Shown here piece by piece: positions 23,889 to 62,056 of a stretch of DNA of 64,000 bases. The position numbers and the translations under genes are program-made. The DNA is from a virus. The DNA lies in the IMG/VR virus record IMGVR_UViG_3300042402_001868, positions 32,001-96,000 of that record. One strand, written 5' to 3'. Each line of letters begins with the position of its first letter. The stretch's first letter is position 1. The notes under the pieces are model-generated. The model searched no databases. It saw nothing but the letters and a program-made list of their open reading frames with translations, and was not told the origin of the DNA.

Positions 23889-24996
23889 GATTGTTGTCGA
23901 CGAATGGTCCGAAGTGTGGGACCTGCTCAAACCCTATGCAGATGAATCGTTTTGGCAACTACCTGATTTAAATCCTGAAAACATTTACATTGTTGGCCGT
24001 TTGCTGTTAAAAGACAACTGGACAACAATAACCACCTGGGCCACAGAACATCCAGGACGAATTGTGTTTTGCAATCCAGCAGAAGGCAGCGAAACAGTGT
24101 TGCTACAGCTACGTCGGTTGCGAATTGCAGATCATGTGCGTGATGGTCGCATATTGTTAATGACATCTGGTGACCTAGAACCTGGATGGAATCATTTCAG
24201 TACAGATTGTTACTTTTCAAACATTGTTGAATACCAGGAAAACAGGTCAGCACAGATACAAGCATTGTGGGAGTACTCTGATCAACGACCCTACGAGTTT
24301 TTGTTTTTAAATGGCCGCTTACGACCGCACCGTAAATGCTTAATTGACGGTCTTCGTGAGCGCAAACTGCTGGATCATGCATTGTGGTCCAATCTAGGCA
24401 GCCAAGTAGAAATGGAATTTACATCCAAGCTCGAGCCTGACAAACAAGAGTCCATAAGACTATTGCCTCCTGATTATGAAATAGAACGTGCTGTGACACA
24501 ATTAAATACTGTGAGCACATCGGGTTTTGTCAAGCATGAGCTGTTTGGTAACACCTGGGGAGATGCCATAGTCAATCATCGTTGCTATACAGACACCTGG
24601 TTCAGTTTAGTGTCTGAAACCATATTTGATTATCCATATTCATTTAGAACAGAAAAGATCTACAAGCCCATTTTAATGGCACACCCGTTTGTGGTTGCTG
24701 CCAATTGTGGCTACTTACGAGATCTACAAAACGCAGGCTTCCAAACATTTGACAGTATCATAGATGAATCGTACGACCAAATTGATTGCCCACATGCCAG
24801 GATCAAGCGTATAATAGAAACAGTGCGTTATCTTGTGAAGGGCGGCCCCGAACATTTCTGGGAGGCCAGCCGCGCCATCTGTAAATACAATCAGCAACAT
24901 CTTGTGGAGTACAATCTCGAACAACGTGCTCGACTTCCATTACTATTAGAGCAATTTTTAAATGAACGATCTAGAATTTCGTCAACAACAACTTGA
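23872..24996 (+). CDS. Putative glycosyltransferase (GT10/GT-B-like 'ET..TEK' family), copy 1
   Basis: FSLVSET...RTEKIYKPILMAHPFVV...GFQTFD..IDESYD. Confidence 0.45.
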   Translation: MLGTHKIVVDEWSEVWDLLKPYADESFWQLPDLNPENIYIVGRLLLKDNWTTITTWATEHPGRIVFCNPAEGSETVLLQLRRLRIADHVRDGRILLMTSGDLEPGWNHFSTDCYFSNIVEYQENRSAQIQALWEYSDQRPYEFLFLNGRLRPHRKCLIDGLRERKLLDHALWSNLGSQVEMEFTSKLEPDKQESIRLLPPDYEIERAVTQLNTVSTSGFVKHELFGNTWGDAIVNHRCYTDTWFSLVSETIFDYPYSFRTEKIYKPILMAHPFVVAANCGYLRDLQNAGFQTFDSIIDESYDQIDCPHARIKRIIETVRYLVKGGPEHFWEASRAICKYNQQHLVEYNLEQRARLPLLLEQFLNERSRISSTTT

Positions 24997-26296: not shown

Positions 26297-27981
26297 CACT
26301 AGATGAACTAAAAAAACAATACGATGTTGTTGGCGTAATTGATTTATCAGCTTGGACTAACAACTACGAGAACAGTACTCAGTGGCTGCGCAAACAATGC
26401 GAAGCTGTGTACCAAGCGGCCTACGCAGAAAATCAACGCATTGTATTTGTACATTCACATGATTACTATATAAAGAACGCCCACTCGGCAGGAATCATTT
26501 TAAAGAACATACAAGTGGCATTAAATGAAACTGATATTTCAAATTACTTTGCTGTGGTTCTTAGTACAAATCCCAATATTGAACAAGAAGTAGCCTATAT
26601 CAATTCACAGAGCTCTGATCCTGTGCCTGTAAAATTTGAATACATGTTGGGAAAATTTTCTACAACAGAGTTGCCCCAGCATCCTTACAGTAGAAAAGAA
26701 CAGTATCAATATGGATCAGCTAACCCTATTAAAATCAGCTTGAACGAAGTCAGTAATCAAGACAAGTTTTTACTCAGCGAAAGCAAAAACTTCTGTATAT
26801 ACCCTTGGATTCACATGCACGCCTGGCCCACAGGCGAGGCATATCCTTGCTGCCATGCCACCCATTCACCTGTTTATGGCAACACACGCAAAGAAACTCT
26901 GTTAGATGTATGGAATGGCACACGCATGCGACAACTCAGACAAGACATGTTAAACAACACTGCCAATGAAACTTGCCGTAAGTGTCACGAGCAAGAAGAT
27001 TCAGGATTCTTTTCAGGGCGACAAAGTGCCAACAAGCATCACGGGCACCATATTGATCGTGTGCATAGAACCCAGCCCAATGGCACATTTGATGAGTTTG
27101 AAATGACTTACTGGGACATTCGTTTCAGTAATCTTTGCAATTTAAGTTGCCGCAGTTGTGGACATATTTTTAGCTCAAGCTGGTATCAAGACCAAGCCAA
27201 ATTAGCCGGCGGCGATTGGAAGCAAAAAAATCCTGTGCTTAATTATGCTGGACGTACTGAAACTGACATGTGGGAACAGTTGATTCCTCACCTGGACTAC
27301 GTAGAACAGATTTACTTTGCTGGCGGTGAGCCGTTATTAATGGAAGAACACTATCGCATCTTAGACGAGTTAGTAAAACGCAAAAGATTTGATGTACGAT
27401 TGATATATAACACAAACTTCACACATACTGATTTAAAAGGTAATAGTGTATTTGAATATTGGAAACAATTTGATAGTGTGGCAGTGGGCGCAAGTTTAGA
27501 TGCAAGTGGCGCACGTGGTGAATACATACGCAAAGGCACAGACTGGGCAGTGGTAGAACAAAACCGCAGAGACATGCTGGCAATTTGTCCAGGGGTAGAC
27601 TTTTATATTTCTCCCACACTCAGCATTATGAATGCTCTACACCTACCGGACTTTCACAGAGATTGGGTGGAAAAAGGACTGTTAAAACCACAGGATCTAA
27701 ATGTAAATATATTGCAGGATCCTGTGCAATATAGACTGGACATTGCCCCATTGGCCTACAAGCAACAGGTCAAACAAAAGTTTGAAGAACACCTGGAGTG
27801 GTTGCGGGTGCAAGATCCCTTGCACAGAGCCACAGTGGGCTTTGAGTCAGCAATCAACTACATGATGAGCACCGACAACACACACCTGATTCCTAAATTT
27901 TGGAGCACAACTGATCGATTAGATGAAATTAGACGAGAAAACATCTTGGACGTGATTCCAGAATTAACGGCATTAAAATGA
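26293..27981 (+). CDS. Radical SAM protein with twitch-like domain and extra ~160-aa N-terminal domain
   Basis: CNLSCRSC and AGGEP; CIYPW..PCC..CRKC upstream of the core. Confidence 0.85.
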   Translation: MTLDELKKQYDVVGVIDLSAWTNNYENSTQWLRKQCEAVYQAAYAENQRIVFVHSHDYYIKNAHSAGIILKNIQVALNETDISNYFAVVLSTNPNIEQEVAYINSQSSDPVPVKFEYMLGKFSTTELPQHPYSRKEQYQYGSANPIKISLNEVSNQDKFLLSESKNFCIYPWIHMHAWPTGEAYPCCHATHSPVYGNTRKETLLDVWNGTRMRQLRQDMLNNTANETCRKCHEQEDSGFFSGRQSANKHHGHHIDRVHRTQPNGTFDEFEMTYWDIRFSNLCNLSCRSCGHIFSSSWYQDQAKLAGGDWKQKNPVLNYAGRTETDMWEQLIPHLDYVEQIYFAGGEPLLMEEHYRILDELVKRKRFDVRLIYNTNFTHTDLKGNSVFEYWKQFDSVAVGASLDASGARGEYIRKGTDWAVVEQNRRDMLAICPGVDFYISPTLSIMNALHLPDFHRDWVEKGLLKPQDLNVNILQDPVQYRLDIAPLAYKQQVKQKFEEHLEWLRVQDPLHRATVGFESAINYMMSTDNTHLIPKFWSTTDRLDEIRRENILDVIPELTALK

Positions 27982-29192
27982 ACATACCACACGATAAATT
28001 TTGCGTTTTGCCTTGGGTCAGCTTAGAAGCCAGTCCCATTGGTACAGTACGCCCTTGTTGTTTAGCTGATGATGAAATAGTTGACAACACAGGCAACAAG
28101 TTTGAACTCAGCACAGCTAACTTTGGGGACATACAAAATAGCAATCACATGCGTGAATTGCGACAACAGTTTCTAGCAGGAGAAAAACCGCAAACATGCC
28201 GCAAGTGCTGGAATGAAGAACGTAGCAATCGCACCAGCAAACGCATGCACACACTTAACAGACTCAAACATGTGTTGCCTGAAGGTGAATGGACTGCTGA
28301 CGCTAAACCTCTAATGTTCCTGGATCTCAAGCTGGGCAATATCTGCAATTTAAAATGCCGCATTTGCGGATCCTGGTCCAGTTCTCAGTTTGCCACAGAA
28401 GAACTAAACCAATTGCGTGGCGAAGACAAAAAAGCCAGCTTTCATTATCAGATGTTAAAACAAGGTGCCTGGCCTAAAGAAAACCTATCATTCTGGGATC
28501 AAATTGATCATATGCTAACGGACATTCGTTACATTGAATTTACTGGTGGCGAACCATTCATGATTGAAGAACACTTTGACATGCTACAGGGCATTGTTGA
28601 CCGTGGTATTGCAAATCAAGTTGAAATACACTACAACACAAATGGTACACAATTCCCCGAAAAGGCTCCAGCTATTTGGAAACATTTTAAAACAGTAGAA
28701 ATAGCATTTTCAATTGATGACATAGGAGATCGCTTTGAATATCAACGCACTAATGCTGTGTGGGCGGATGTGGTGTTCAATATTGATCGTTTCCGTTTAC
28801 TCCGGGAAGACTATCCAAATATTCAACTACAGATCTGCACCACTGTGAACGTGTTTAATGTACGTTATCTAGGCGAAGTTGCTGCCTGGATAGAACGCAA
28901 CCGTAACGCATTTAACTTTGTGTACTGGAACATGATGCACGACGCCTGGTACTTCTCTATTGCCACCTTGCCAGACACAGCCAAAACAGCCATTACAGAA
29001 TACTTAGACTCAGTTGAAACCATTTACCGAGATGAATTTGATCGCATAAGAGACTTTATGAATCGTGGCGCTTCAACAGATGGTGGCATACTGCGTATGC
29101 GTGTGCGAGATCTAGATCGTAAACGTGAACAAGATTTATCAGTTGTAGAACCTGAATTTGCCGCACTGATTAACTACACCTATGCCACTTAA
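27978..29192 (+). CDS. Radical SAM protein with N-terminal twitch-like domain
   Basis: CNLKCRIC and TGGEP; CVLPW..PCC..CRKCW. Confidence 0.85.
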   Translation: MNIPHDKFCVLPWVSLEASPIGTVRPCCLADDEIVDNTGNKFELSTANFGDIQNSNHMRELRQQFLAGEKPQTCRKCWNEERSNRTSKRMHTLNRLKHVLPEGEWTADAKPLMFLDLKLGNICNLKCRICGSWSSSQFATEELNQLRGEDKKASFHYQMLKQGAWPKENLSFWDQIDHMLTDIRYIEFTGGEPFMIEEHFDMLQGIVDRGIANQVEIHYNTNGTQFPEKAPAIWKHFKTVEIAFSIDDIGDRFEYQRTNAVWADVVFNIDRFRLLREDYPNIQLQICTTVNVFNVRYLGEVAAWIERNRNAFNFVYWNMMHDAWYFSIATLPDTAKTAITEYLDSVETIYRDEFDRIRDFMNRGASTDGGILRMRVRDLDRKREQDLSVVEPEFAALINYTYAT

Positions 29193-30120
29193 ACTGCTGT
29201 TGCATAACAATGATCGTAATTCGTTTTCTCATGGACACATTCAGTCATTGTTGCGACAGTATTTTGACATTGTGATCTGGCAGCCAAATACCATGTACAG
29301 TCAAGATCATGTGTTGGTAGTAGATTCATTTAAACTACATCGTGTTGATCCTAATTATTGGTACATATCTTATCTCAGAGATGGATACAAAGTACTGGTA
29401 GATAATATGTGGGAAATACCAAATTTTATAAACACTCATTTCCCCAAGGATGACCCTGGTTACCACGTGATGCAAAACACCAATTGGTTTTGGTACAACG
29501 AATCCTTGATGTATACCCAACAAGGATTTGATCAATATCAGCCAAATAAAACATATGATCGCCTGGCTCTCATGCCCATGCGCATTGGTCGCGGTCACCG
29601 CCGTGATCTTGTGATTGAACTAAGTAGTGTTCTGGACAATTTAATCTGGAGTTTGAATTCACATGGCCGTCAATTGCCCGACGATTTACCACAAGACCAT
29701 CCAGACTATCAGAGACATTTCAATCCTACCTGGTATGACCGCACACATTTCAGCATAGTGGCAGAAAGTCAAATTAGCAATCCAGAAATGTTTGTTACAG
29801 AAAAAATATTCAAACCCATGGCATTTTATCATCCATTTGTTGTGATGGGACAATCGGGGATATTGAATTACCTGCACACACAAGGATTTGAAACATTTAA
29901 CAATCTATTTGATGAAAATTATGACACCATTGCAGACTATTACACTAGGTTATTGGCAGTAACAGATGCAGTTAAACGCTATGCTTGTGTGCCTTATGAT
30001 ACATTAACACAACAAAAACTCGCGCACAATCACAATCGTTTCTTTGATCAAACTTTAGTAAGTACAATGTTCGTCAGAGAAATTATTGACCCTATTAAAG
30101 AATATGTTGAATCATTATGA
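29182..30120 (+). CDS. Putative glycosyltransferase ('ES..TEK' family), copy 2
   Basis: FSIVAES...VTEKIFKPMAFYHPFVV.G..G...GFETF..LFDENYD. Confidence 0.45.
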   Translation: MPLKLLLHNNDRNSFSHGHIQSLLRQYFDIVIWQPNTMYSQDHVLVVDSFKLHRVDPNYWYISYLRDGYKVLVDNMWEIPNFINTHFPKDDPGYHVMQNTNWFWYNESLMYTQQGFDQYQPNKTYDRLALMPMRIGRGHRRDLVIELSSVLDNLIWSLNSHGRQLPDDLPQDHPDYQRHFNPTWYDRTHFSIVAESQISNPEMFVTEKIFKPMAFYHPFVVMGQSGILNYLHTQGFETFNNLFDENYDTIADYYTRLLAVTDAVKRYACVPYDTLTQQKLAHNHNRFFDQTLVSTMFVREIIDPIKEYVESL

Positions 30121-31337
30121 TAATACCAAGTGAAAATTTTTGCATTGTGCCCTGGTTTGGAATTGAAACCACACCTGTTGGCACAGTGAGACCGTGTTGT
30201 ATTGCCCGTGATGAAATTGTGGACGACAACGGTGTTGCATTTAATCTGCATTCAAGTACATTTGACCAGATTCTGAACAGTCAGTCCATGAAAGAACTAC
30301 GTCAACAATTCCTGGACAACAACCGTCCTGCGACGTGTAACAGTTGCTGGAATGTTGAAGTTGCTGGTCACAAGAGCAAGCGTTTACAAACCTTGGAATC
30401 TGACCTGGCAAAAAATCTTGACAACCAGTCTTATACTACAGATCCTATACCATTGAAATACATTGATCTTAAACTGGGCAACATCTGCAACTTAAAATGT
30501 CGTATATGTGGTGCATTTAGCAGTAGCCAGATAGCGTCGGAAAAGGTGGCAACATTGCCACCTGACCGTAAAAAACACAGCTACGAATACAAAATGTTAC
30601 GTGATGGGGCCTGGCCAAGAGAAAGCCCTGCGTTCTGGACCGAGTTAGAAAAAGTTCTGGGCCAAATCAAAAAGTTTGACATATCAGGCGGAGAACCGTT
30701 CTTGATCGAAGAGCACTTTGATATGTTACGCAACATGGTTGCTAAAGGATATTCGCATGACACAGAAATATATTACAACTCAAATGGCACAGTATATCCC
30801 GAGTCTGCAGAAGAAATTTGGAAAGATTTTCAGACTATTAAAATAGCTCTAAGCCTAGATGATATTGGATCCAGATATGAATATCAAAGATCCAACGGAA
30901 ATTGGGGGATGGTATTAACCAATTTGGAAAAGTTCAGACAACTGCGTTCAAGACACAGCAATATCATTCTAGAAGCATGTTGCACTGTGAGTGTTTATAC
31001 TGTGTTATATCTGGCAGAAATACTAGATTGGTTACATACGCAACAGCTAGATTATGTAAACATAAATTTTTTACATTATAATCCAGCATTGAGCGTTGCT
31101 AATTTGCCACAAGGGATCAAAGATCAAATAATACATCATTTAATCAGTGCGAACCAGACTGCAAATTATGAAGAAATCTCTGTTGTGATCGATTTCATGC
31201 GTCACGGAAACAGCAACAATGATCTATCAGCTACTCTGGAATTAATAACCCATTATGATCAACTAAGGTCAACTGATCTCAGAGATTCTTCTCCTGAGCT
31301 TGCAAAAATACTAAATTACCAGTATAATAAACAATGA
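30117..31337 (+). CDS. Radical SAM protein with N-terminal twitch-like domain (close paralog of 27978..29192)
   Basis: Shares DLKLGNICNLKCRICG, GTVRPCC..DEIVD and GAWP with 27978..29192. Confidence 0.85.
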   Translation: MIIPSENFCIVPWFGIETTPVGTVRPCCIARDEIVDDNGVAFNLHSSTFDQILNSQSMKELRQQFLDNNRPATCNSCWNVEVAGHKSKRLQTLESDLAKNLDNQSYTTDPIPLKYIDLKLGNICNLKCRICGAFSSSQIASEKVATLPPDRKKHSYEYKMLRDGAWPRESPAFWTELEKVLGQIKKFDISGGEPFLIEEHFDMLRNMVAKGYSHDTEIYYNSNGTVYPESAEEIWKDFQTIKIALSLDDIGSRYEYQRSNGNWGMVLTNLEKFRQLRSRHSNIILEACCTVSVYTVLYLAEILDWLHTQQLDYVNINFLHYNPALSVANLPQGIKDQIIHHLISANQTANYEEISVVIDFMRHGNSNNDLSATLELITHYDQLRSTDLRDSSPELAKILNYQYNKQ

Positions 31338-33790
31338 GTGATTCTTTAAATAAACCCCTGTGTGTTTTGCCATTTATACATGGTCTAATGGAAACAACCG
31401 ATCAACTGTTGCCGTGTTGTGCGTATGACCACCGTTATGGCAAACAATATCAAGTACATGAGTTTGATACCTGGTGGGAGTCTGGACTGACCGAGATTAG
31501 ACAAGACATGCTGGCCGGGCGAAAACACGAAGGCTGCAATCGTTGTTGGAAAGAAGAAGAACAAGGAATATCAAGTTACCGCCAGCGTCAGAATGAACAC
31601 TGGGCTCAATATCAAAATATCCAACAGCCTCTACCCAAGCCTGTATTTTTAATGATGGGAATTGGAAACTATTGTAATATCAAGTGTATCATGTGCTCCC
31701 CACAAAAAAGTAGTTTATGGGCTGACGAATACGAAAAGAATCAAAAAACATTTAACAAAATTGACATACGCTTTAATAACTACAGCAACGGTGCCTGGAG
31801 TGAACCGGAAAAAATTGAACGTCTACTAGATCGTGTGGCCACCAATGTAGAGATGTTGCACTTCAGCGGTGGAGAACCACTAATTACTCCGGAGTACAAA
31901 CAAGTACTACGTTCAGTGATCAATCCCGGCAATGTAGAATTACATATCAATACCAATTTGACCATGCTTAGTGAAGACTGGATCACATTATTAAAACAGT
32001 TTAAAACAAAAATTAATGTGAGCCTTGAGGGTGTGGGCAAGAAAAATGACTACATCAGAGAAGGATCAGACTGGTCCGTATTGGTACGCAACATAGCCCG
32101 TCTTAAAGAGGCAGGAATAGAAGTTTTTGTTAATCATGCGTTCAGCAGAACCAGTTTGTTGGCCTTGCCTGAATTGATAGAGTTTTGCACTGCTAACAAT
32201 ATATACATTAGTTTTACTCAGTTGACATTACCGACTCATTTGCTGGTGGCTGGTGCGCCAGAATCTGAAAAACAACAATTTTTAACAGCACTAGAAGGCA
32301 TGGTAAACCCGCAACATAGAGCATCAGAAATTTTTGTTTACGCAGACATTGTAAAGACAACCAAGTATGATGCAGAAAAAGATGTTGCATTTTGGAAATA
32401 CATAGACACCATGGATCAATTACATGATAAAAATTATCAAGAAATCTTCAATGTTAAACCTGATCTGAGCCAACTGTCGGACAAACCGTCAGACCGAACA
32501 CCTGAAACATTGTGTTTGGCACCATGGACTCATACTTACTTGAGTCCGCAAACTGAACGCAGAATGTGCTGTGCGTCGAGAGAACCTGCACAGAGCTTTG
32601 AACAGTATATTGATACCGCAGCCGGCACAGGCAAATACCTGCCTATCACACTAGAACAACACTGGAATGGCGATCACATGCGTAGTGTACGCACACGCAT
32701 GATGGCCGGCGAAACTCTGCCTGAGTGCGAGGTATGCAATAACAAACTATTGAATACTGATGTGTACAGAAGTTATTTTTCGCATCTATTCAAACACAAA
32801 ATTGATGAGGTATACAATACAACTGACGAAACTGGTTATACCACAATGAAGCCAGTGAGTTGGGATTATCGTTTCAGCAATCTCTGCAACTTCAAATGCA
32901 GAACCTGCGGGGACATGTTGTCAAGTGCCTGGGAAACAGAACAAAAACAAACCAATATGACTGACTGGAGCAAACCCAGAAACAACTGGATGCGTCCCGA
33001 AATAAGAACACAAATATCAGCATTTCAAGACAGTCAAATTGAACAAGAATTTTCAGACGCTGTGGAAGAACACCGTGTGGAGGAAATATACTGGGTAGGC
33101 GGGGAACCCTTGATGTTTGAACAGCACTGGCGCTACATGAAACGCATAGTAGATTTGAGAGACGGACCACGGGTATATGCACGATATAACACAAATCTCA
33201 GCAGGGTAGATTATAAAGGCGTGAATCTTTATCGAGACATTCTTACTCATATCCGTGACTGGCAGATTTGTGCTAGTTTGGATGGTACAGGTGTCACCGG
33301 TGAGTACATACGCACAGGATTAAATTATGAAGAATTCTGTAGAAACTTTGAACAAGGTATTGCTATAAAACAACACAAGAGACAAATGCGACTGGACTTT
33401 ACACTCACACTGCCGGGAATGACAGAAATTTTGGCAATGGAACAGTTGGCAGCATCATATGGGGTGGAGTTATTGGCCAAAGTAATCTTTAGTTTTACTC
33501 CTGATATCATAATGAGTCCATTGGCTCTGCCCAGACCGTTGTTAACGGATTGGATCAACGAATTAATGCCCAAATGCCAAACACAAGTCATGCGTGATAT
33601 GCTGTTGCAATTGCAGTCTAGACCAACGTTTGAAGAACAATGGCCCAGCGAGTATCAAGCAGGATTACGTAAAGGAAAGAATCGTGTGCTACAAATAGAA
33701 CGCATACGAACAGCGCCAACAGATATGGCTACAATATTGAATGCAAGACCTGATGTTAAAGAATGGTGGGACCAAATTGGAACAGATTGA
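31334..33790 (+). CDS. Tandem double twitch-radical SAM fusion protein (818 aa)
   Basis: Two complete modules, CNIKCIMC+SGGEP and CNFKCRTC+VGGEP, each preceded by its own C..P(F/W)..CC..CxxC segment. Confidence 0.8.
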   Translation: MSDSLNKPLCVLPFIHGLMETTDQLLPCCAYDHRYGKQYQVHEFDTWWESGLTEIRQDMLAGRKHEGCNRCWKEEEQGISSYRQRQNEHWAQYQNIQQPLPKPVFLMMGIGNYCNIKCIMCSPQKSSLWADEYEKNQKTFNKIDIRFNNYSNGAWSEPEKIERLLDRVATNVEMLHFSGGEPLITPEYKQVLRSVINPGNVELHINTNLTMLSEDWITLLKQFKTKINVSLEGVGKKNDYIREGSDWSVLVRNIARLKEAGIEVFVNHAFSRTSLLALPELIEFCTANNIYISFTQLTLPTHLLVAGAPESEKQQFLTALEGMVNPQHRASEIFVYADIVKTTKYDAEKDVAFWKYIDTMDQLHDKNYQEIFNVKPDLSQLSDKPSDRTPETLCLAPWTHTYLSPQTERRMCCASREPAQSFEQYIDTAAGTGKYLPITLEQHWNGDHMRSVRTRMMAGETLPECEVCNNKLLNTDVYRSYFSHLFKHKIDEVYNTTDETGYTTMKPVSWDYRFSNLCNFKCRTCGDMLSSAWETEQKQTNMTDWSKPRNNWMRPEIRTQISAFQDSQIEQEFSDAVEEHRVEEIYWVGGEPLMFEQHWRYMKRIVDLRDGPRVYARYNTNLSRVDYKGVNLYRDILTHIRDWQICASLDGTGVTGEYIRTGLNYEEFCRNFEQGIAIKQHKRQMRLDFTLTLPGMTEILAMEQLAASYGVELLAKVIFSFTPDIIMSPLALPRPLLTDWINELMPKCQTQVMRDMLLQLQSRPTFEEQWPSEYQAGLRKGKNRVLQIERIRTAPTDMATILNARPDVKEWWDQIGTD

Positions 33791-34847
33791 AATAACTTTA
33801 AGAAATACACAAACAGGCAAGTTATTGTCGGTGTATGTGGATGTTGAAGACAATAGTCTGAGTCGACGTTGGCTTGGGGCATTAAATCACTTGCTGGAAA
33901 AGAATCTTCATTTAGAAAAGAACTACTGCTGGTTTGGATGGCATGCAGGACCTAGAACAGCAGAATACATATGTGATCAAATTAATCAGTCAATCGCAGC
34001 CATCAATGCAGCCGACATGGGCTATCAAATTACAGATCATTTTGATACCATGAATACCATCACTGCAGGTGCTGTAGGCGATGGCTTGCCTGGTGGCAAG
34101 CTAGTACACCACAAGCTGAATCAACTGCATCGTTACTTTGAAGACCTGCAAGGAGTATCGGGAGCAATGAGTCCATTTTATACTCGTGCAGATGCTGCCA
34201 CTCGCTGGCATATTAGACAATTAAACTTGCTGTGTCACGAATACGAAAGCCTAGTACTGAGCATGCGAAAAGCACAACATGCCCCAGAATGGGTGCGGCC
34301 TAGTCAACTCATGTGTTGGTTAAATGCACCACGTTTTGAACTAGAATCTGAAGATTATGATCTGTTTGGTATAGAAACAATCAATCGCAGTCTAGGCGGT
34401 GTGTATGTGGGTGTGAACAAAGCAGTGGGCAAGCATCATTGGGAAGTGTTTCACGATGAGGGGCGCGATAGTCGCATGGATGAATTAACTACCACAACAC
34501 TACGATCACAAACAGAAGCCGCAGGAGACTTTGATATAGAGTGGGCGCGAGATCCAGGCGCCTATCCCTGGCAGATCAACCAGTTAGCAGAGTTCCGCGA
34601 ATGGTTGGTGGCCAATGGGTTTGATCCTGACAACAAAGCACTCACTATAGGTCACCCCAAGATTGCACAAGTAAACCTGCTCAAGACATTTGGCACAACG
34701 GATGCTGCCACAATCTGGACCATTTTAAATGACTATTTAGATGTGTATAAAATAACAACTAGCCAAGCTAGTGCTATATACAGCTATCACTGGAGCGATG
34801 CAGACTTTGTTGATCGTCAAATACAGTGTATTACACAAGGACCATAA
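33741..34847 (+). CDS. Hypothetical protein (His/Glu-containing helical motifs)
   Basis: 368-aa ORF inside the operon; the start may be the TTG at 33777. No family recognised. Confidence 0.6.
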   Translation: MQDLMLKNGGTKLEQIEITLRNTQTGKLLSVYVDVEDNSLSRRWLGALNHLLEKNLHLEKNYCWFGWHAGPRTAEYICDQINQSIAAINAADMGYQITDHFDTMNTITAGAVGDGLPGGKLVHHKLNQLHRYFEDLQGVSGAMSPFYTRADAATRWHIRQLNLLCHEYESLVLSMRKAQHAPEWVRPSQLMCWLNAPRFELESEDYDLFGIETINRSLGGVYVGVNKAVGKHHWEVFHDEGRDSRMDELTTTTLRSQTEAAGDFDIEWARDPGAYPWQINQLAEFREWLVANGFDPDNKALTIGHPKIAQVNLLKTFGTTDAATIWTILNDYLDVYKITTSQASAIYSYHWSDADFVDRQIQCITQGP

Positions 34848-34848
34848 T

Positions 34849-34950
34849 ATGAACTGGCTTAAAAACTTATACAATAGAATTCGATTAGAAATTCGCTATC
34901 GCCGAAAACTAAAAGAACTGCGCAAAAGAGATCCATTTATCTACAAATGA
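34849..34950 (+). CDS. 33-aa basic peptide coupled to the carbamoyltransferase (not in ORF track)
   Basis: Reads MNWLKNLYNRIRLEIRYRRKLKELRKRDPFIYK*. It starts 1 nt after the upstream stop and has an ATGA overlap with 34947. Confidence 0.65.
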   Translation: MNWLKNLYNRIRLEIRYRRKLKELRKRDPFIYK

Positions 34951-36422
34951 AAATACTAGGAATTTCAGCAGGGTTTCACGACGCTGCCGTTACTGTAATT
35001 CATAATGGCGATATTCTTTTTGCTGGACATAGCGAGCGGTATTCAAAGCAAAAGAATGATGCCAACATCTGCTCTGAACTGTTACAGGATGCTGTCAACG
35101 GCACAGTAGATCATGTGGCTTACTATGAGCGTCCGTGGTTGAAACAACTGCGACAATGGTATGCTGGCCAAGGCATTGAGTGGAACAAATTCACTCTAAA
35201 ACAAGTGCTGGAGCAACAGGTGCCCGAAGTAATGCAGGCAGCACCCAGCACAAGCACACACAATCATCATGCTTGCCATGCGGCAGCAGGATTCCAAACA
35301 AGCCCGTATGATCGTGCCACTGTAGTAGTAATAGATGCAGTGGGCGAGTTTGACACAATAACAATTTGGGCGGCAGAATATGATTCTAAAGGCATGGCAA
35401 AGTATCAAAAACTTTGGGCACAACATTATCCACATTCAATTGGACTGTTCTACAGTGCGGCTACTAGCAGTGTTGGCCTACGCCCACTAGACGAAGAATA
35501 CATCTTAATGGGTATGGCCGCTTATGGCAATGCTACGCAAGCGGTTAGCATGCAAAAACTAGTAAAAGACTCAGACAAAATTCAATTCCGTGACAATCTG
35601 CACACGGGCATTGACAGTCGATATCTACAGGATCTTGAAGAATTTGACATTGCTGCCGGGGCACAAGCCATTGCAGAACAATTAATTAACTCAGTCATGC
35701 GCAGAGCACGTGACTTCAACTTCAGTACTAATTTAGTCTACATGGGCGGTGTGGCTCTTAACTGTAGTGCTAATCGTAATTTAGGAAAATACTTTGATAA
35801 CATTTGGATTATGCCTTGCCCCAGCGACGCTGGTTCTAGCCTGGGCGCGGCAGCACTAGCTTACAGGAAACAAATACATTGGACCAATGCCTATCTGGGC
35901 CATGATATCTCTGGTGATTATCCTGTCACTGATGTTATGGACAACCTGTTACGGGATAAAATTGTGGGGGTGGCCAGCGGTCGTGCTGAATTTGGACCCA
36001 GGGCTCTGGGCAATAGATCACTATTGGCAGACCCACGTGGCGCAGACATAAAAGATCGTGTGAATGAAATCAAGCGCAGACAGCAATTCAGACCGTTTGC
36101 ACCTGTGATTCTTGAAGAGCATGTGGATATGTATTTTGACATGCCCCGGGGTTTCTCTGACAGTAGATATATGCAAGTGATTGCTCGCTGTAGGCATCCT
36201 CACATATTTCCTGCCATTGTTCATCGCGACGGAACTAGTCGTGTACAAACAGTTCCCCGAGATGGCTCGGGAATTCGACTGCTACTAGAAGCATGGTACG
36301 CAAAAACAGGCTGTCCTATGTTGCTTAACACAAGTTTAAACATACGTGGAGAACCCATGGTAAATGATCGTGCAGATGCCGACCGATTTGAAGAGTTATA
36401 CAATGTAAAGGTATGTTCATAA
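34947..36422 (+). CDS. Carbamoyltransferase, NodU/CmcH/TobZ family
   Basis: ILGISAGFHDAA, HHACHAAAG, DAVGE, GGVALN, DAGSSLG, EFGPRALGNRS, RPFAP, HRDGTSRVQTV, LNTSLN. Confidence 0.93.
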   Translation: MKILGISAGFHDAAVTVIHNGDILFAGHSERYSKQKNDANICSELLQDAVNGTVDHVAYYERPWLKQLRQWYAGQGIEWNKFTLKQVLEQQVPEVMQAAPSTSTHNHHACHAAAGFQTSPYDRATVVVIDAVGEFDTITIWAAEYDSKGMAKYQKLWAQHYPHSIGLFYSAATSSVGLRPLDEEYILMGMAAYGNATQAVSMQKLVKDSDKIQFRDNLHTGIDSRYLQDLEEFDIAAGAQAIAEQLINSVMRRARDFNFSTNLVYMGGVALNCSANRNLGKYFDNIWIMPCPSDAGSSLGAAALAYRKQIHWTNAYLGHDISGDYPVTDVMDNLLRDKIVGVASGRAEFGPRALGNRSLLADPRGADIKDRVNEIKRRQQFRPFAPVILEEHVDMYFDMPRGFSDSRYMQVIARCRHPHIFPAIVHRDGTSRVQTVPRDGSGIRLLLEAWYAKTGCPMLLNTSLNIRGEPMVNDRADADRFEELYNVKVCS

Positions 36423-36423
36423 T

Positions 36424-37704
36424 ATGGACAATAAAAGAGTTTTCCCGATCAACACCGACACTGGGTGTTTGTTAAAATGGGCATGGTCAACTGTGTTTCT
36501 TCGTCAAGGCACAAGTTCCAGCTGTCATAGAACAGATCAAGCACCAATACCCCCGGGAGATTTTGCAAGTTTTCATAACTTACCTAACAAAGTTGCCGCA
36601 CGTGAATTGATGTTGCAGGGCGGTTGGCCACAAGGCGGATGTCAGTACTGCGAAAAGATTGAAGCAGCCGGGGGCATGAGCGATCGTCAGTATCAACTGC
36701 ATGCTGGACATGATCATGATCGTACTCCTAGAGAACTGTTGCAAGACCCCACGCAAACAGAAGTTGTGCCCACCATACTAGAAGTGTATTTTAACAATAC
36801 CTGTAACATGAGTTGCTTGTACTGCGGTAGTCATTTCAGTTCAAAGTGGGAAGAAGAAAACAAACGGTTTGGCATGTACGAGAACACTCCCAAGACAGTG
36901 GCATTTGGCTGGGACACCAAACAACCAGACCTAGACTATGATAAAATGCTGGCTGATTTCTGGAAATATCTCCACGACAAAGATAGATATCTACACATTA
37001 GACAATATCAAATTGCCGGAGGCGAGCCATTCCATCAGGTAGAACTGGAAGCCAGTATAGACTTTTGGGATAACCATCCCAATCCTGAACTAACATTTAA
37101 TTTTATTACCAATTTAAAAGTCACCCCCAAGAAGTTTCAATCCACTATTGACCGCTTGGGTCGCATGGTAGATCAAGGCAAACTCAAACGTGTACAAATT
37201 AGTTCAAGCCTGGATGCCTGGGGACCGCAACAGGAGTATGTGCGGTGGGGACTAGACTTGGCAGAGTGGCAGGAAAACTTTGAATATTGCCTGGACAAAC
37301 CATTTATTCAACAGTGTATCAATTCAGCAATCAATCCCTTGACTGTGAAGACCATGCCAGAATTGATTCACAGAATGAATGATTGGAATGATCGCTGTTC
37401 ACCCAACAAGCAAATTGCCTACAGCTTTATGACAGTGATGGCACCAAACTGGATGGATCCTGCTATCTTTGGTGCAGGCGTGTTTGAACAAGACTTTGAA
37501 AAAATACTTGCAGCCATGCGGGAAAACACCGACATGGAACGCAGTGCCAAGCATCACATGGAAGGCATTGGGCGACAAATTGCTGCCGCACCACGCAACA
37601 TTGAACTAATCAATGGACTTAAAGATTATGTTACTGAACTTGATCGCCGTAGAGGAACACAATGGCAGGAACTATTTCCCTGGCTTGATCAGGACTGGAA
37701 ATAA
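36424..37704 (+). CDS. Radical SAM protein with N-terminal twitch-like domain
   Basis: CNMSCLYC and AGGEP; CLLKW..SCHR..CQYCE. Confidence 0.85.
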   Translation: MDNKRVFPINTDTGCLLKWAWSTVFLRQGTSSSCHRTDQAPIPPGDFASFHNLPNKVAARELMLQGGWPQGGCQYCEKIEAAGGMSDRQYQLHAGHDHDRTPRELLQDPTQTEVVPTILEVYFNNTCNMSCLYCGSHFSSKWEEENKRFGMYENTPKTVAFGWDTKQPDLDYDKMLADFWKYLHDKDRYLHIRQYQIAGGEPFHQVELEASIDFWDNHPNPELTFNFITNLKVTPKKFQSTIDRLGRMVDQGKLKRVQISSSLDAWGPQQEYVRWGLDLAEWQENFEYCLDKPFIQQCINSAINPLTVKTMPELIHRMNDWNDRCSPNKQIAYSFMTVMAPNWMDPAIFGAGVFEQDFEKILAAMRENTDMERSAKHHMEGIGRQIAAAPRNIELINGLKDYVTELDRRRGTQWQELFPWLDQDWK

Positions 37705-57026: not shown

Positions 57027-57055
57027 ATTATAGCAAAAAGCAATTTAATGGTCAA
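57027..57055 (-). promoter_or_regulatory. sigma70 early promoter TTGACC-17-TATAAT
   Basis: TTGACCattaaattgctttttgcTATAAT. Confidence 0.8.
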
Positions 57056-58211
57056 CCAGGGAAATATCCTTGGGCAGTTGTGGGGTAAAATCTTTGATGT
57101 AAATGGCTGAACTCATACAGGCCTTGAATCCGTCATGTAGTGTCCAAATGTCAGGATATTTGTTGTGTAGGTATTGCAACCCATGCAGCCAATGGTTATA
57201 AACCGTTGGATTGGTTTTTTCGGCTAGATCTTTAAGTACTGCACTGTCGGGGTTGACAATACTGCTGACGCCGTTATCGGCAATGGTAGTATACCAATGT
57301 TTATTGTATCCAGATGCAGACACTACATCAGCTACTCTACTACGACCAAAACTTTTGTTCCATTCGGCATATAAATCACCACGCTCACGTAGACTACGAT
57401 TGGATTTTTTACCCTGCACTTCATGCACAAAGTCATGGCTACATTCTGGATGACTTTCCAGCCATTTGATAATCATCCATACTTGCTTGATATACAATCT
57501 TGTGGCTTCGGGACACAAATAAAACAAGTGTCTAGGACTATTTAAATGAGCTGTGAGAGCAACGTCGGGCATTTGCGCATACCACTTACCGTTGTGCAAA
57601 CTAACTCTTGGCTTGTCCACTCCATTGATATCGCACCTACCAATGATATGATCTAGTCCTATAAAATCTTTATGGTGTACCGCTGTATTATATCTATAAG
57701 TTTTAGTAAAATTATGATTTTCTCCAGGCCCATGATAGATCCAGTCAGATCCATGCTCTTGATAAAATTTAAATGTGGTGTCTTGATCGTATTCAATATA
57801 CCTAATGTTTAACCAAGGCTGTAGATGATTTTTAATCAGATGAGCCTGTTGTAGCGCAACCTGAGCTTCAATGTTGTCATGAGTTTTGATATAAGGCTTA
57901 TGGAATATTAGTATTTCGTCTAATCGAGTGTTAGTACGTAAAATACTATCCAGGATAGTGTGACTATCGTACCCAGCACTATACCAAAGAGCTAGATATT
58001 GATACTCTTCTCGCAGTATTCTAACACGTTGATCAATAAGATCATAAACTGATTCTTCTGGCTCAGTAGTCCAGTCATGCTGGCGGTGAGCATCGTCTGC
58101 AAAATAAAAATGCACACGACTCAGGTCACCGCCAGCTGCCTCTACTGCCAAAAGTTTGTTGGTAGTTTTATAGTCACCGACTTGATAGTAAAGGTATTGA
58201 CTTGAATTCAT
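57045..58211 (-). CDS. PP-loop (adenine nucleotide alpha-hydrolase-like) protein
   Basis: LWYSAGYDS, a variant of SGGxDS; overlaps the end of the tctC-like gene by 4 nt. Confidence 0.5.
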   Translation of the reverse strand: MNSSQYLYYQVGDYKTTNKLLAVEAAGGDLSRVHFYFADDAHRQHDWTTEPEESVYDLIDQRVRILREEYQYLALWYSAGYDSHTILDSILRTNTRLDEILIFHKPYIKTHDNIEAQVALQQAHLIKNHLQPWLNIRYIEYDQDTTFKFYQEHGSDWIYHGPGENHNFTKTYRYNTAVHHKDFIGLDHIIGRCDINGVDKPRVSLHNGKWYAQMPDVALTAHLNSPRHLFYLCPEATRLYIKQVWMIIKWLESHPECSHDFVHEVQGKKSNRSLRERGDLYAEWNKSFGRSRVADVVSASGYNKHWYTTIADNGVSSIVNPDSAVLKDLAEKTNPTVYNHWLHGLQYLHNKYPDIWTLHDGFKACMSSAIYIKDFTPQLPKDISLVDH

Positions 58212-59122
58212 AGATCAATTTTTTGCAAACTTGTTCTGAGTTGATCAATGAATTGTGTGTAAGACTGGACATCGTTTCCAATGTTAATTTGGTTTCTTTT
58301 GGTCAGGCTTTCTACCACTGCAGGGTCTTTCAACACGTTAAGAATGTCTTGACGAAGTTGTTTAAGTTCTTCCTGATCTATTTTTGGACTCGCAGCAATC
58401 AGTATTCCGCCACTGACTTGGCCCACGCCTAACTGTTTCCGAACTGACGGAACAGACTGTCCGGCAATTGTCAGTGACTGATCAGTTGTATTTCCTAATA
58501 TACGAAATTTGCCAGCTTTGACGTACTCTTCGACTACAGGAGTGTAAGACATAATTGCTACATTAATGTCGTTGGCCAATAACGCTGTAATAATATCCGT
58601 CGGGCCTTTATATCTAACTGGTTCAACGGCTTTAGCTTCCCAATTGTAGTGTTGAGATAACAGTTGCAAGTTGACTACTTCTACAGAGACAGCATAACCT
58701 ACAAAATTTTTAGTACTGTTTGGCAACGTTTTGATCAGATCGTTCATGTTTTTATACGGTGCATCGGCTCGTATTACCCAGGCCTGCGGAGTCAATCCCA
58801 CAGGGCTAATTGGAATAAAGTCATCGTCCTTGTAAGGTAAGTCTTTTATGGTCTTGGGATTGAAGGCCAGCATGGTAGTAGAAGTCAAAATTAAGCCAGG
58901 TTTGGCTATATTTTTAAAACGTACAACTGCAGGCACATGATTTCCGCCGCCTACACTCTCAACTACCAGTGTATTTCCAGTTTGTTTTTTATAAGCTTCG
59001 GCAATTACTCTTGCAGTAATTTCACTAGACGATCCTGGTGCATTAGGATTGATTAGCACATACTCTTTGGCCGTGGCCACGTTAATAAACATTGCAAAAA
59101 GCAATGAAACAATAAATTTCAT
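58208..59122 (-). CDS. Tripartite tricarboxylate transporter substrate-binding protein (TctC/Bug family)
   Basis: Signal peptide MKFIVSLLFAMFINVATA; PNAPGSSSEITAR, VESVGGG, PYKDDDFIPI, VRYKG, ALLANDI. Confidence 0.75.
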   Translation of the reverse strand: MKFIVSLLFAMFINVATAKEYVLINPNAPGSSSEITARVIAEAYKKQTGNTLVVESVGGGNHVPAVVRFKNIAKPGLILTSTTMLAFNPKTIKDLPYKDDDFIPISPVGLTPQAWVIRADAPYKNMNDLIKTLPNSTKNFVGYAVSVEVVNLQLLSQHYNWEAKAVEPVRYKGPTDIITALLANDINVAIMSYTPVVEEYVKAGKFRILGNTTDQSLTIAGQSVPSVRKQLGVGQVSGGILIAASPKIDQEELKQLRQDILNVLKDPAVVESLTKRNQINIGNDVQSYTQFIDQLRTSLQKIDL

Positions 59123-59150
59123 AATTTCCTCGATAAGTTTAAAAGTACTA

Positions 59151-59255
59151 GTAGATGAATTCTACGTACGGAAGGCGTTCTGTAGTATAGTCCACAGTAA
59201 AGACATCTCTATGTCAAGCGTCAAATTGATCCGACGTCGGCCCTTGCCGGCGCTG
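59151..59255 (-). ncRNA. Candidate structured cis-regulatory RNA leader (riboswitch-like)
   Basis: Five adjacent hairpins in a GC-richer ~140-nt intergenic leader between a TAAATA motif and the tctC-like SD. Family not recognised. Confidence 0.45.
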
Positions 59256-59261
59256 TAATAA

Positions 59262-59267
59262 TATTTA
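59262..59267 (-). promoter_or_regulatory. Late promoter core TAAATA
   Basis: Overlaps the stop of 59265..60344 and directly precedes the structured leader. Confidence 0.4.
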
Positions 59268-60344
59268 TTTTACAAAACAATCATTTAAAATTTTGTTATG
59301 TACACGTAGTCCTAGAGCATATCGAGGTTGATTGCTAGTATTAACTGCACCATGTGTAAACGTGTCGTTGTTAACAACCATTAACTCATTGCCTGTTGGC
59401 AATATGCCAGCACCAGCAAATTTAATAAAACTACCCTCAGGCCACACTAGTGGAACATATAGTTGCGTACACCCTTTATAATTTACATACTCGGGTTTTG
59501 ATTTATTTGTATCATCAGTATGAGGATAGATAAAATCCCCAGGAGATAATTTTCCTATAAAAACTGACCAGCAGTCAAGGTCCAATAGATCTATTATTGA
59601 TTTAATATGCGGGTAGTTGTCTGCTATTGGCAACCGATTGCCGTACTTGTACAACCATGTGACATTCCAATTTGAATTGAATTTGTCTCCAAACTCTTTC
59701 TGATTGGCTATACGTTGAGTGTAGGATTCTGTTGTGCTACCATCAATGTTTTTTACTACTTCTTGAGCTGCAAGTTCTATCAGTTCATGAGATATACTTT
59801 TTTTATACCACATATATGGTATTTGTTCGGCTGTTGCTGTCTCTTTTGAAATTACTGTGAAATTAAAGTTGTGTAAGAAAAAATCTGTGATAATTTTAGG
59901 AAATTTACTTGAGTCAACAGTCAATCTGTCTGGATAGTAAATCCAATATTTTTCATATAAGTTTGTCCCAAACACACCGTTTGGAAATTTAGATTCTACA
60001 AGCTCAAGCCAATAGCTAACAGGATATCCAAATGGCAGGTGCCAGGTCTGGTTTGCTTCCCATATCACTGCACCTGGCTGAAGTTTTTGATGATCAGAAT
60101 TTTCAATCCATCCCAAATACAACATTTTTCTTAGACTAGATTCGTTCACAAAAACTTGTAAGATTTCTAATCTAATAGAATTGAGACTAGTTATACTCAG
60201 TTTGTGTAAACCAAATTCACTGTTGGTATATATAAAAATTCCAGTGTCGTTGACGTTAAACTCAACTATTTGATTGTCTAGTTTAACACATATATCATTA
60301 GGAGTTATTTTTCCAGATGTTTCAATAAAAATAAATGGTGTCAT
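59265..60344 (-). CDS. Protein with C-terminal Asp/Asn beta-hydroxylase-like 2OG-Fe(II) domain
   Basis: KLSPGDFIYPHTD (HxD) ... THGAVNTSNQPRY (distal H, R). AT-rich. Confidence 0.6.
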   Translation of the reverse strand: MTPFIFIETSGKITPNDICVKLDNQIVEFNVNDTGIFIYTNSEFGLHKLSITSLNSIRLEILQVFVNESSLRKMLYLGWIENSDHQKLQPGAVIWEANQTWHLPFGYPVSYWLELVESKFPNGVFGTNLYEKYWIYYPDRLTVDSSKFPKIITDFFLHNFNFTVISKETATAEQIPYMWYKKSISHELIELAAQEVVKNIDGSTTESYTQRIANQKEFGDKFNSNWNVTWLYKYGNRLPIADNYPHIKSIIDLLDLDCWSVFIGKLSPGDFIYPHTDDTNKSKPEYVNYKGCTQLYVPLVWPEGSFIKFAGAGILPTGNELMVVNNDTFTHGAVNTSNQPRYALGLRVHNKILNDCFVK

Positions 60345-61064: not shown

Positions 61065-61790
61065 CTATTTTAGTTCCACATCGGTTAAATCAGGAATCAG
61101 TTCGCCTTTTTGCATCTGAGTTTGGTCGCTATAGCTATTTGATGAACGTTTTCCAACATGGATTTGAACAAGGTCTCTGCTTTGAAACTCTGGATACTTG
61201 TTCCAGTAACTGGTAACATGAATTTGATTTGTATCAAACAACACCGCATCACCTGCTTTGTAGGTAAAGATACCCTCTAGCTCAAGCCAATCGCAATAAT
61301 TTCTAGTGAGATCGCGCCAGTCGGCACAATGGTCCAGGTCTTCAATTTCAGATATGTTTGAAATTTTTGGACCTTTTAACTTTTGTTCCATGTATGGCTC
61401 GATATCTTGGCACGAATTAAAAAGCTCTTTGAAAATAATTGCTTTAAACTTTGGTTGGTCATCTAATGCAAAAATTATAGTATAAGTCAGGTCAAATCGA
61501 TCCTTGCCAAACTCGTCCACATGAAGAGAATGGGAAGTGACTTGCCGTTGATAGTTTCCCCAAAAATAGTTCTCGTTAGGAAAATGCGTCTTGACAATTT
61601 TTTCTAAAATAGAGTAGGCTGGCGTATTCTCTTTGATCAGCAATCTACGATCAATGTGATCATGCACACCTATACCTGGATGTACTCCCTCAGGTTTGCC
61701 ATTGACATAGGCATGTTGATGATTGTCAATCCAGTATTTTTTAAATACCTGAATGTCTTCGGGGCTCAGTATATTTTCTAATAGTTTCAT
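61065..61790 (-). CDS. Putative 2OG-Fe(II) oxygenase-like protein
   Basis: SLHVD (HxD) ... GDAVLFDTNQIH. Confidence 0.5.
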   Translation of the reverse strand: MKLLENILSPEDIQVFKKYWIDNHQHAYVNGKPEGVHPGIGVHDHIDRRLLIKENTPAYSILEKIVKTHFPNENYFWGNYQRQVTSHSLHVDEFGKDRFDLTYTIIFALDDQPKFKAIIFKELFNSCQDIEPYMEQKLKGPKISNISEIEDLDHCADWRDLTRNYCDWLELEGIFTYKAGDAVLFDTNQIHVTSYWNKYPEFQSRDLVQIHVGKRSSNSYSDQTQMQKGELIPDLTDVELK

Positions 61791-62056
61791 AGTTGCAATC
61801 CTTTATTTTTTTTGTTTGTGTTTGCAATTCGATGAAGATAGTCATTTCCGACATGACCCTCTTCAATTTCTAATATAGCGGTAACCATTGCACCATACTT
61901 GGTAACAATCTTTGGGGCATGCCCACGACGCAGTTCTCTTGCTCGTTGCGCGGCAACCAGTACCAAATCATATCTGTTACCTAATGCCTCTACTGCATAT
62001 TCGCTTGTAAGGCCAGCGGTTCTACCACTTACGTCATGTTTAATTTTCATCTTCAT
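61787..62056 (-). CDS. rpoZ: RNA polymerase omega subunit-like protein
   Basis: NRYDLVLVAAQRAREL..GHAPKI...VTAILEIEEG matches the omega signature. Confidence 0.8.
   Translation of the reverse strand: MKMKIKHDVSGRTAGLTSEYAVEALGNRYDLVLVAAQRARELRRGHAPKIVTKYGAMVTAILEIEEGHVGNDYLHRIANTNKKNKGLQL

Follow-up and report, generated by a model that had tools for sequence, protein, structure and literature searches.

In a 64,000-nucleotide (nt) stretch of viral DNA, hereafter the window (bases 32001–96000 of the 155,922-base IMG/VR record IMGVR_UViG_3300042402_001868), a folded element of about 115 nt lies on the sense strand of the non-coding gap ahead of a tctC-like gene, which encodes a solute-binding protein. 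Given its estimated completeness of 45%, the source record is a fragment of a jumbo phage. Copies of the element (165–171 distinct ones) occur on ~100 viral contigs of IMG/VR and on at least 120 contigs of lake metagenomes. It is a real, widespread and undescribed structured RNA, and most likely it controls the expression of uptake genes. We consider it probable that this gap specifies a structured 5′ leader of ~115 nt that acts in cis, either a candidate riboswitch or the binding site of a factor. Coordinates of the parts in the window copy are collected in Table 1.

Read 5′ to 3′, the consensus begins with a TAAATA motif, 5–6 nt of spacer, (N)GC-A (helix P0), hairpin P1, CGG (P2a), a linker of 8–13 nt and GACG-C-YU (P2b), and continues with hairpin P3, UUUAC, hairpin P4, A-R-AA-CGCC (P2b), NN, CCG (P2a), UA, hairpin P5 and A-GC(N) (P0). 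Beyond the 3′ strand of P0 come ~20 nt, the Shine-Dalgarno (SD) sequence and the start codon. Covariation shows the overall shape to be a four-way junction of P0, P1, P2a, and P5, the P2 arm of which opens into a three-way junction of the proposed P2b with P3 and P4. P1 follows the consensus (A/G)CG-C-NNN, loop, NNN-A-CG(U/C), in which a C.A mismatch is conserved. The junction bases GACGCYU, UUUAC, and AACGCC are near-invariant across copies, and an octamer of the type R-S-AACGCC opens the element and recurs at the P4/P5-side junction.

Covariation carries the case for this fold. In alignment A3, a plain MAFFT alignment of 112 copies sharing <62% of 6-mers, 94.7% of cells were paired, compared with 80.1% after shuffling and 30–52% when partners were slid; double changes occurred in 22 of 26 pairs (409 cells), and none of 500 shuffles matched the real alignment on any measure. 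An alignment fitted to covariance model (CM) R1 gave 98.1% of cells paired, a value that leans towards its own model. RNAalifold, run on 123 copies, found P1, P3, and P4 unaided. Among individual helices, double changes affected six of the seven pairs of P1 (A-U/G-C/G-U, G-C/A-U/C-G and others), five of six in P4, and every pair of P5 (e.g., GCGG/CCGC, GCAG/CUGC, GUGG/CCAC). In P3, four of five pairs were doubly changed and 99% of cells paired, all of this variation lying outside the larger of two classes of copies (class I, described below), within which P3 is invariant. P2a reads CGG:CCG in ~105 copies, CAG:CUG in five and GGG:CCC in two, with zero violations once misparsed rows are set aside and 97.6–99.2% of cells paired. 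In P0, columns 1 and 152 of A3 pair as G-C in 102 copies, as A-U in L209 (we number element-bearing contigs with the prefix L) and the window clade, and as U-A in L088; the helix is 98% paired in the CM alignment, its third pair being weakly supported. P2b is invariant except for one G-U variant and so carries no covariation signal, an invariance partly forced by the search patterns. We therefore treat its pairing as proposed; it would repeat the GACG/CGCC duplex, A.C mismatch included, that makes up the covariation-supported base of the P1 stem. The linker has no conserved sequence or pairing in alignments A1 and A3, and in a subclass (L064, L090, L097, L121) a local covarying hairpin takes its place. 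Two further pairings were tried and rejected: a mini-hairpin ACG-CCUAC-CGU at the second AACGCC, which is broken by the GGG:CCC variants, and pairing of the closing AGC with GCU of GACGCUU, which shows no covariation (class II copies have GCC there, yet AGC is kept).

Folded by itself, the window copy reaches a minimum free energy (MFE) of −32.7 kcal/mol with z = −1.70, and 15 of 200 shuffled sequences fold equally well (the plus strand gives z = −0.81). The single-sequence fold is only marginally above chance, and the comparative evidence decides. A z-score this modest is what one might expect of an ordinary spacer, whose hairpins arise by chance or represent an upstream terminator together with the tctC promoter. 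More than 160 distinct copies that covary far beyond shuffled and slid controls refute that explanation, and in relatives such as L006 and L014 a canonical terminator followed by an AT-rich spacer precedes the element and is separate from it; we leave the spacer reading practically no probability. The consensus fold of the window copy scores −20.9 kcal/mol vs. its MFE of −32.7, meaning that nearest-neighbor energy alone does not favor the junction; such marginal stability is expected where a fold depends on tertiary contacts or on the binding of an effector.

The original prediction for this locus, made from the letters of the window, had drawn five hairpins in a leader RNA of the tctC-like gene. 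The minus-strand sequence of 59151–59255 reads as given there and all five hairpins can be drawn; the first (the inner part of P1), third (P3), fourth (P4), and fifth (P5) are kept by compensatory changes across more than 100 non-redundant homologues. The second, CGUCGGA/UUUGACG, is not conserved. Its arms belong to P1/P2a and to P2b, the stretch between them is the variable linker, and changes in the arms (GACGCCGG, GACGUGGG) break it and are compensated in P1 and P2a. An alternative pairing of CGG(C)AAGG with CCUUCCG, offered as the closure of a four-way junction, took the wrong CGG: it is the second one (59233–59231) that pairs, with covariation, with CCG (59171–59169). The argument that G-U pairs mark the sense strand was borne out, e.g., by 49 of 112 copies in which a G-U forms the closing pair of the P1 loop. 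Two checks had been suggested for the fold: comparison with shuffled controls proved marginal (z = −1.70), and the homologous leaders proved conserved and strongly covarying. What survives is a conserved, structured, sense-strand leader of a solute-binding-protein gene, whose link to transport fits a cis-regulator, with the second hairpin and the four-way closure as originally drawn discarded.

Copies were collected with the core pattern GACGCYTGACAT-N4-ATGTCTTTACT, which matched 73 viral contigs and at least 120 metagenome contigs, nearly all from lake samples. A gapped pattern that left P3 free yielded a second class of copies. Two independent anchors outside the core, one on P1 and one on the 3′ side, gave 30 matches, of which 26 contained the class I core exactly. 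The leader is more strongly conserved than its flanks, as judged from three related viral contigs in which the leader is ~95% identical, TctC is just 71–73% identical, and the upstream gene differs in two. At greater distance (TctC identity 46–51%), L008 and L010 still have the element, and both strands of their hairpin stems have changed. Genes of the tctC family can do without it, since it is missing from L012, whose TctC homologue is 57% identical; the leader there (L012:2380-2500) consists of TAAATA, 3 nt, one perfect hairpin of 11 bp (GCAAUGCUGAG...CUCAGCAUUGC) and the SD.

Searches with model R1 returned one copy in the 156-kb record that holds the window and one or two in each of five genomes of 317–354 kb (89–98% complete); two copies stand ahead of neighboring genes in L051, L079, L177, L210, and L214. 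Among 185,579 species genomes, the core pattern occurred in one contig, a 6,987-base piece of a Polynucleobacter metagenome-assembled genome (MAG). The CM search of cellular genomes covered this genus only: of 121 Polynucleobacter genomes, 120 lacked the element and the one that had it carried it on that same MAG contig. A host regulatory element borrowed by the phage would be expected ahead of the host homologues, an expectation that the genomes searched do not bear out. BLAST of GenBank phage records with a 2.4-kb region and with a 163-nt copy gave zero matches. Rfam 15 (4227 covariance models at gathering threshold) found no match in the window, the outcome under which the original prediction would keep its novelty; at E ≤ 10 on 59050–59350, three chance-level plus-strand matches were returned and nothing else. 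On 18 diverse element-bearing loci Rfam matched tRNA and transfer-messenger RNA (tmRNA) only, with no RF00005 match at the element, and ARAGORN called zero tRNA or tmRNA genes in the window. The text of Weinberg (2017) contains no freshwater, TctC, or porin motif.

Several element-bearing contigs (L184:8021-8368, L082:2694-3059, L202:1135-1492, L023, L019, L036, L117) encode a betaproteobacterial-type two-piece, permuted tmRNA and large tRNA arrays, which suggests betaproteobacterial hosts. On L184, L082, and L202, the leader element begins ~50–250 nt downstream of the tmRNA gene.

In every copy the element lies on the sense strand, at a median of 58 nt from the start codon of the next gene (40–70 nt in 69%). 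The 108 non-redundant downstream proteins comprised 45 TctC, eight DctP, eight TauD-family (dioxygenase-like), seven TctA, and 6–9 porins, with four DUF2061, two ABC binding proteins, two proteins resembling Asp/Arg hydroxylase (AspH-like), and one halogenase. A further ~10 belong to a PP-loop-like family with an SGGxDS-type motif and no Pfam match; this family includes the 388-amino-acid (aa) protein encoded next after tctC in the window (26% identity, E = 8e−18). By class, DctP and ABC binding proteins are associated with class II, whereas class I is associated with TctC, TctA, porins, and the PP-loop-like proteins. Two features expected of a riboswitch are present, a covarying, structured candidate aptamer and a sense-strand site ahead of functionally related genes, 5′ untranslated region (UTR) status resting on the predicted promoter.

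Class I (~134 distinct copies, including that of the window) carries a feature that the original prediction had missed. In 128 of 134 copies, TTGACA-N17/18-TAnnnT runs across P3 and P4 (−10 hexamers TATTAT, TATAAT, TAGAAT), making a near-consensus sigma-70 promoter with a predicted start at AGAACGCC. Six copies are exceptions, that of the window among them: its −10 lacks A at position 2, and a promoter scan makes no call on it. Class II, which accounts for 27 of 116 non-redundant copies, has P3 helices of other sequence (AGGG/CCCU, GGAG/CUCC, GAGG/CCUC, GUGG/CCAC, ACAG/CUGU) and a different, GC-richer P4 hairpin. Its loops, UAGNGAAA and UGAUA, are conserved across this class, the junction bases are the same, and promoter hexamers are absent. 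Because class II keeps P3 and P4 with other sequences and without hexamers, it is the fold, not the promoter, that is under selection; the promoter is an overlay on a fold common to all copies, and as a whole explanation of the element it is ruled out. About a third of class II copies do have a strong sigma-70 promoter directly after P0, so the element probably does have a genuine association with host-type promoters. In L215, L216, L221, L223, L228, L232, L233, L236, and L238, all of class II, TTGACA-N17-TAnnnT starts 0–15 nt past the closing AGC, and in L223 the −35 of this promoter lies inside the P5 loop. The P3-P4 module (GACGC...AACGCC, ~54 nt) is a self-contained unit in its behavior: it is tandemly duplicated within P2 in four contigs (L023, L034, L073, L078/L130), and in L114 a copy sits within the P1 loop.

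Promoter hexamers inside the element, and unrelated genes both before and after it, would also suit a mobile regulatory cassette acting at the DNA level, which would serve homologous recombination of accessory genes or act as a folded single-stranded-DNA site; the PeSL (promoter-early stem-loop) cassettes are a documented precedent (PMC2839356, PMC4122927). Such a cassette is hard to reconcile with just one or two copies per 317–354 kb genome, and compensatory change in five helices would lower recombination homology. The G-U pairs are strand-specific, orientation and SD spacing are fixed, and class II lacks the promoter, and on balance we regard this explanation as very improbable.

The TAAATA motif ahead of the element, noted in the original prediction, is real, and its distance is fixed across copies: from the end of TAAATA to the G/A of GCA there are 5–6 nt in 143 of 165 copies and 4–7 nt in 160. 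In the phage genome, 30 of 73 TAAATA and 12 of 15 ATAAATA fall in the 7.7% of DNA outside long open reading frames (ORFs), and the non-coding occurrences mostly lie 10–40 nt before start codons (window examples at 16556, 60370, and 59262). The late promoter of T4-type phages is TATAAATA/NATAAATA. By analogy, the distribution suggests that TAAATA is the phage's own T4-late-like promoter motif. Transcription would start a few bases past it, at ~59256, and the 5′ strand of P0 is probably the very 5′ end of the RNA. The fold would then be recognized by an effector, whether a small molecule or a factor from host or phage, and this recognition would set the expression of the nutrient-uptake gene 40–70 nt further on. 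The downstream genes, TctC, DctP, and TauD in particular, suggest carboxylates (citrate, 2-oxoglutarate) or sulfonates as candidate effectors; a protein, or the transcription or translation machinery, is equally possible.

The 3′ ends vary among clades in ways that resemble expression platforms. In the window clade, P5 can extend to 9 bp followed by U4 in the window and U5–U7 in relatives. The extension, which is invariant within the clade, takes up the P0 3′ strand together with a single P2a base and so excludes the junction, and in the window copy the P5-extended form is predicted at −26.6 kcal/mol vs. −20.9 for the consensus fold; a terminator scan makes no call on the extension plus U4. 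With P0 and P2a formed, P5 of the window copy would stay a 5-bp hairpin and allow read-through into tctC, and with the junction unformed it would extend to 9 bp plus U4 and attenuate transcription. The layout of this clade would make it an ON switch that works through anti-termination. Other clades have, directly after P0, an anti-SD that pairs with the SD (CUCUUAAA/UUUAGGAG, CUCCU/AGGAG).

The promoters inside and just after the element raise the prospect of a ligand-free device built on two transcript isoforms: TAAATA would give a long, folded transcript and the internal or appended sigma-70 promoter a short one that starts near AGAACGCC and lacks the 5′ half, the fold would make the isoforms differ in termination, translation, or stability, and the active form of the polymerase would set the timing. 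Early and late transcripts of the T4 genes e, soc, and 49, which differ in masking of the ribosome-binding site, provide a precedent. The sigma-70 promoter is there in 128 of 134 class I copies and directly after AGC in ~9–10 of 27–32 class II copies, R-S-AACGCC is common to both predicted starts, and the short transcript of the window clade, unable to form P0 and P2a, would default to the terminator-like P5 extension. Yet about two thirds of class II lack a sigma-70 promoter and keep all helices and junction bases, the −10 of the window copy is defective (TGGACT), and the long and short forms do not differ in predicted SD accessibility. A device of this kind would have no need for near-invariant junction nucleotides across very different phages, and we think it unlikely.

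A terminator-like hairpin with U4–U7 in the window clade, a promoter motif of its own at a fixed distance, and sigma-70 promoters inside or just after it could also mark the element as an independent small RNA running from TAAATA to the P5/U-run and acting in trans or on RNA polymerase or the ribosome, the uptake genes having their own promoter; the tandem duplication of P3-P4 (L023, L034, L073, L078) and the insertion into the P1 loop (L114) fit as well. Most copies lack a terminator between P5 and the SD, however, with a tail run of at least five U in just 34 of 143, and the start codon follows at a tight 40–70 nt in 69% of copies. SD-sequestering hairpins adjoin the element in several clades, and the strictness with which it precedes genes of a single functional class is what cis elements typically show, which makes a free-standing small RNA, in our judgment, rather improbable.

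Some observations weigh against a cis-acting leader as well. The 5′ end of the RNA and transcription of its 5′ half are features that we infer. P0 has just 2–3 bp, P2b is invariant and hence proposed only, and the invariance of the core bases was partly forced by the collecting patterns. Platform logic differs by clade: in the window clade the folded state would be ON, and the SD-sequestering clades show no clear competition with the junction. Predicted SD accessibility showed no systematic difference between long and short transcripts. With a sigma-70 promoter inside (128 of 134 class I copies) or just after (about a third of class II) the element, some transcripts may lack the fold.

Within the leader reading, a more specific version is tentative: a new riboswitch class, restricted to lake jumbo phages, whose double-junction aptamer senses a host metabolite or nutrient and switches on phage uptake proteins during infection, most versions having a working sigma-70 promoter inside two aptamer helices. 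If it is true, one stretch of DNA encodes both a promoter and, at a second level, a sensor for a ligand. With a near-consensus promoter laid over two covarying RNA helices, non-coding DNA here shows dual coding of an unusual kind, and the element is a well-defined candidate for a sensor joining host physiology to phage auxiliary metabolism. To our knowledge, few structured regulatory RNAs are specific to phages, and for almost none of them is the effector known. The element is abundant in lakes, very strongly conserved and gene-specific, with one or two copies per ~340 kb genome, always ahead of genes for nutrient uptake or of related auxiliary genes. The phage TctC, DctP, TctA, porin, TauD, and PP-loop genes that it marks form a coherent “regulon,” and the covariance model of the element can be used as a marker for these uncultured phages of Betaproteobacteria.

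Table 1. Parts of the leader element and adjoining features in the window (P, paired region).
Feature	Position	Strand	Details
AspH-like gene, 5′ neighbor of gap	59265-60344	-	Asp/Arg-hydroxylase-like; TAA stop 59265-59267
TAAATA promoter-like motif	59262-59267	-	Overlaps TAA stop (59265-59267) of upstream AspH-like gene
Non-coding gap	59123-59264	-	142 nt; AspH-like gene on 5′ side, tctC-like gene on 3′ side
P0 5′ strand UAC	59255-59257	-	Pairs with GUA 59146-59148; short, weak helix
P1 hairpin GCG-C-CGGC / loop AAGG / GCCG-A-CGU	59234-59253	-	Conserved C.A mismatch; first hairpin of the original prediction is the inner part
P2a 5′ strand CGG	59231-59233	-	Pairs with CCG 59169-59171; encloses P2b, P3, P4
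Variable linker AUCAAUUU	59223-59230	-	Supplies loop and part of stem of the second hairpin of the original prediction
P2b 5′ strand GACG	59219-59222	-	Proposed partner CGCC 59174-59177, with A.C mismatch
Sigma-70-like promoter over P3/P4	59189-59217	-	TTGACA 59217-59212, 17-nt spacer, TGGACT 59194-59189
P3 hairpin GACAU / AGAG / AUGUC	59202-59215	-	Class I type
P4 hairpin CUGUGG / ACUAUA / CUACAG	59180-59197	-	One G-U pair
Junction AA-CGCC-UU, then CCG	59169-59179	-	CGCC, 3′ strand of P2b; CCG, 3′ strand of P2a
P5 hairpin GUAGA / AUUCA / UCUAC	59151-59165	-	Covarying stem
P5 extension, window clade	59141-59169	-	GUAC 59169-59166 with GUAC 59148-59145, then U4 59144-59141
SD and start codon of tctC-like gene	59120-59131	-	GAGGA 59131-59127, ATG 59122-59120; read from sequence
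TctC/Bug-family solute-binding protein gene, 3′ of leader	58208-59122	-	304 aa, signal peptide; PF03401, E = 1.3e-25

The TctC protein is 46–100% identical to its homologues inside the phage clade and at most 33% identical to bacterial relatives. The gap ahead of its gene had been described as the longest non-coding gap in an otherwise overlapping layout of genes, which holds roughly and locally, the neighboring gaps containing small ORFs. A 69-aa, TTG-started ORF on the plus strand (59049–59258), spanning the element and the tctC start, was rejected as spurious because loop indels are not in multiples of three and substitutions preserve pairing. A leader peptide from the AUG in P3 was likewise rejected, having 14 codons in the window, only 4–6 in relatives, and no SD.

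The 388-aa gene that overlaps the end of tctC (57045–58211, minus strand) has the motif WYSAGYDS (SGGxDS-like, PP-loop) and gave no Pfam, NCBIfam, or PHROG match. On the other side, a small gene (61787–62056, minus strand) encodes an omega domain of RNA polymerase (RNA_pol_Rpb6); several relatives (L010:1003-1236, L014:676-942) keep it as well, separated from the tctC leader by a distance of two to three genes on the upstream side. Elsewhere in the window, one ORF of 4,949 aa (935–15784, plus strand) is followed at 16587 by a gene weakly similar to virion structural proteins, and the block at 22497–37704 (plus strand) holds, according to PHROG matches, a run of four or more genes with radical-SAM domains along with a Nol-like carbamoyltransferase, an unusually large set of tailoring enzymes for a phage.

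Among known systems, Polynucleobacter-1 (RF01718) is also a freshwater or estuary metagenome motif that occurs in a Polynucleobacter genome. It sits downstream of GOS11034-family genes, not upstream of transport genes, and was rejected as an identity for the element: its seed sequences are unrelated, and its model had no match on the window (also at E ≤ 10 on 59050–59350) or on the 18 loci. PeSL elements measure ~50 bp, combine a terminator and a promoter, and recur at many sites in the variable regions of one genome. Our element, in contrast, is ~115 nt long with six helices under compensatory change, has a promoter-less class II, and occurs once or twice in each of the five 317–354 kb genomes and once in the record that holds the window. 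What its class I shares with the PeSL cassettes of T4-type phages, conserved non-coding stem-loop(s) and a sigma-70-type early promoter that flank accessory genes in large myoviruses (PMC2839356, PMC4122927), is the joining of promoter and stem-loops in an accessory-gene context, the promoter of class I lying inside covarying helices of the larger fold.

The leader also recalls, in part, RNAs that act on the transcription machinery. The put sites of phage HK022 are two stem-loops upstream of long early operons that act in cis on RNA polymerase. Like put, the element is phage-encoded, folded, near the transcript 5′ end and as highly conserved as expected for a partner that is a conserved host machine; unlike put, it stands ahead of operons of one to three genes and has a double-junction fold. 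With riboswitches in general it has in common near-invariant junction bases, covarying stems, a 5′ UTR site, related downstream genes, and variable 3′ ends, and it departs from them in a closing helix (P0) of 2–3 bp, inconsistent platform logic, a duplicable P3-P4, and a promoter inside the putative aptamer.

The closest analogues are orphan phage-borne leader motifs. The manA, wcaG, PhotoRC-II, and glnA/glutamine riboswitch motifs are phage-borne 5′ UTR elements before auxiliary genes of marine cyanophages, found in metagenomes (Weinberg et al., 2010, PMC2864571). The element differs from these in sequence and fold, which are unrelated and have no Rfam match, in its likely freshwater betaproteobacterial hosts, in its tie to TctC, DctP, TctA, porin, and TauD genes, in its fixed distance from TAAATA, and in the sigma-70 promoter embedded in most copies. 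It resembles them in its discovery by comparison of metagenomes, its covarying 5′ UTR structure, its association with host-like phage genes, and, as for most of them, its orphan status.

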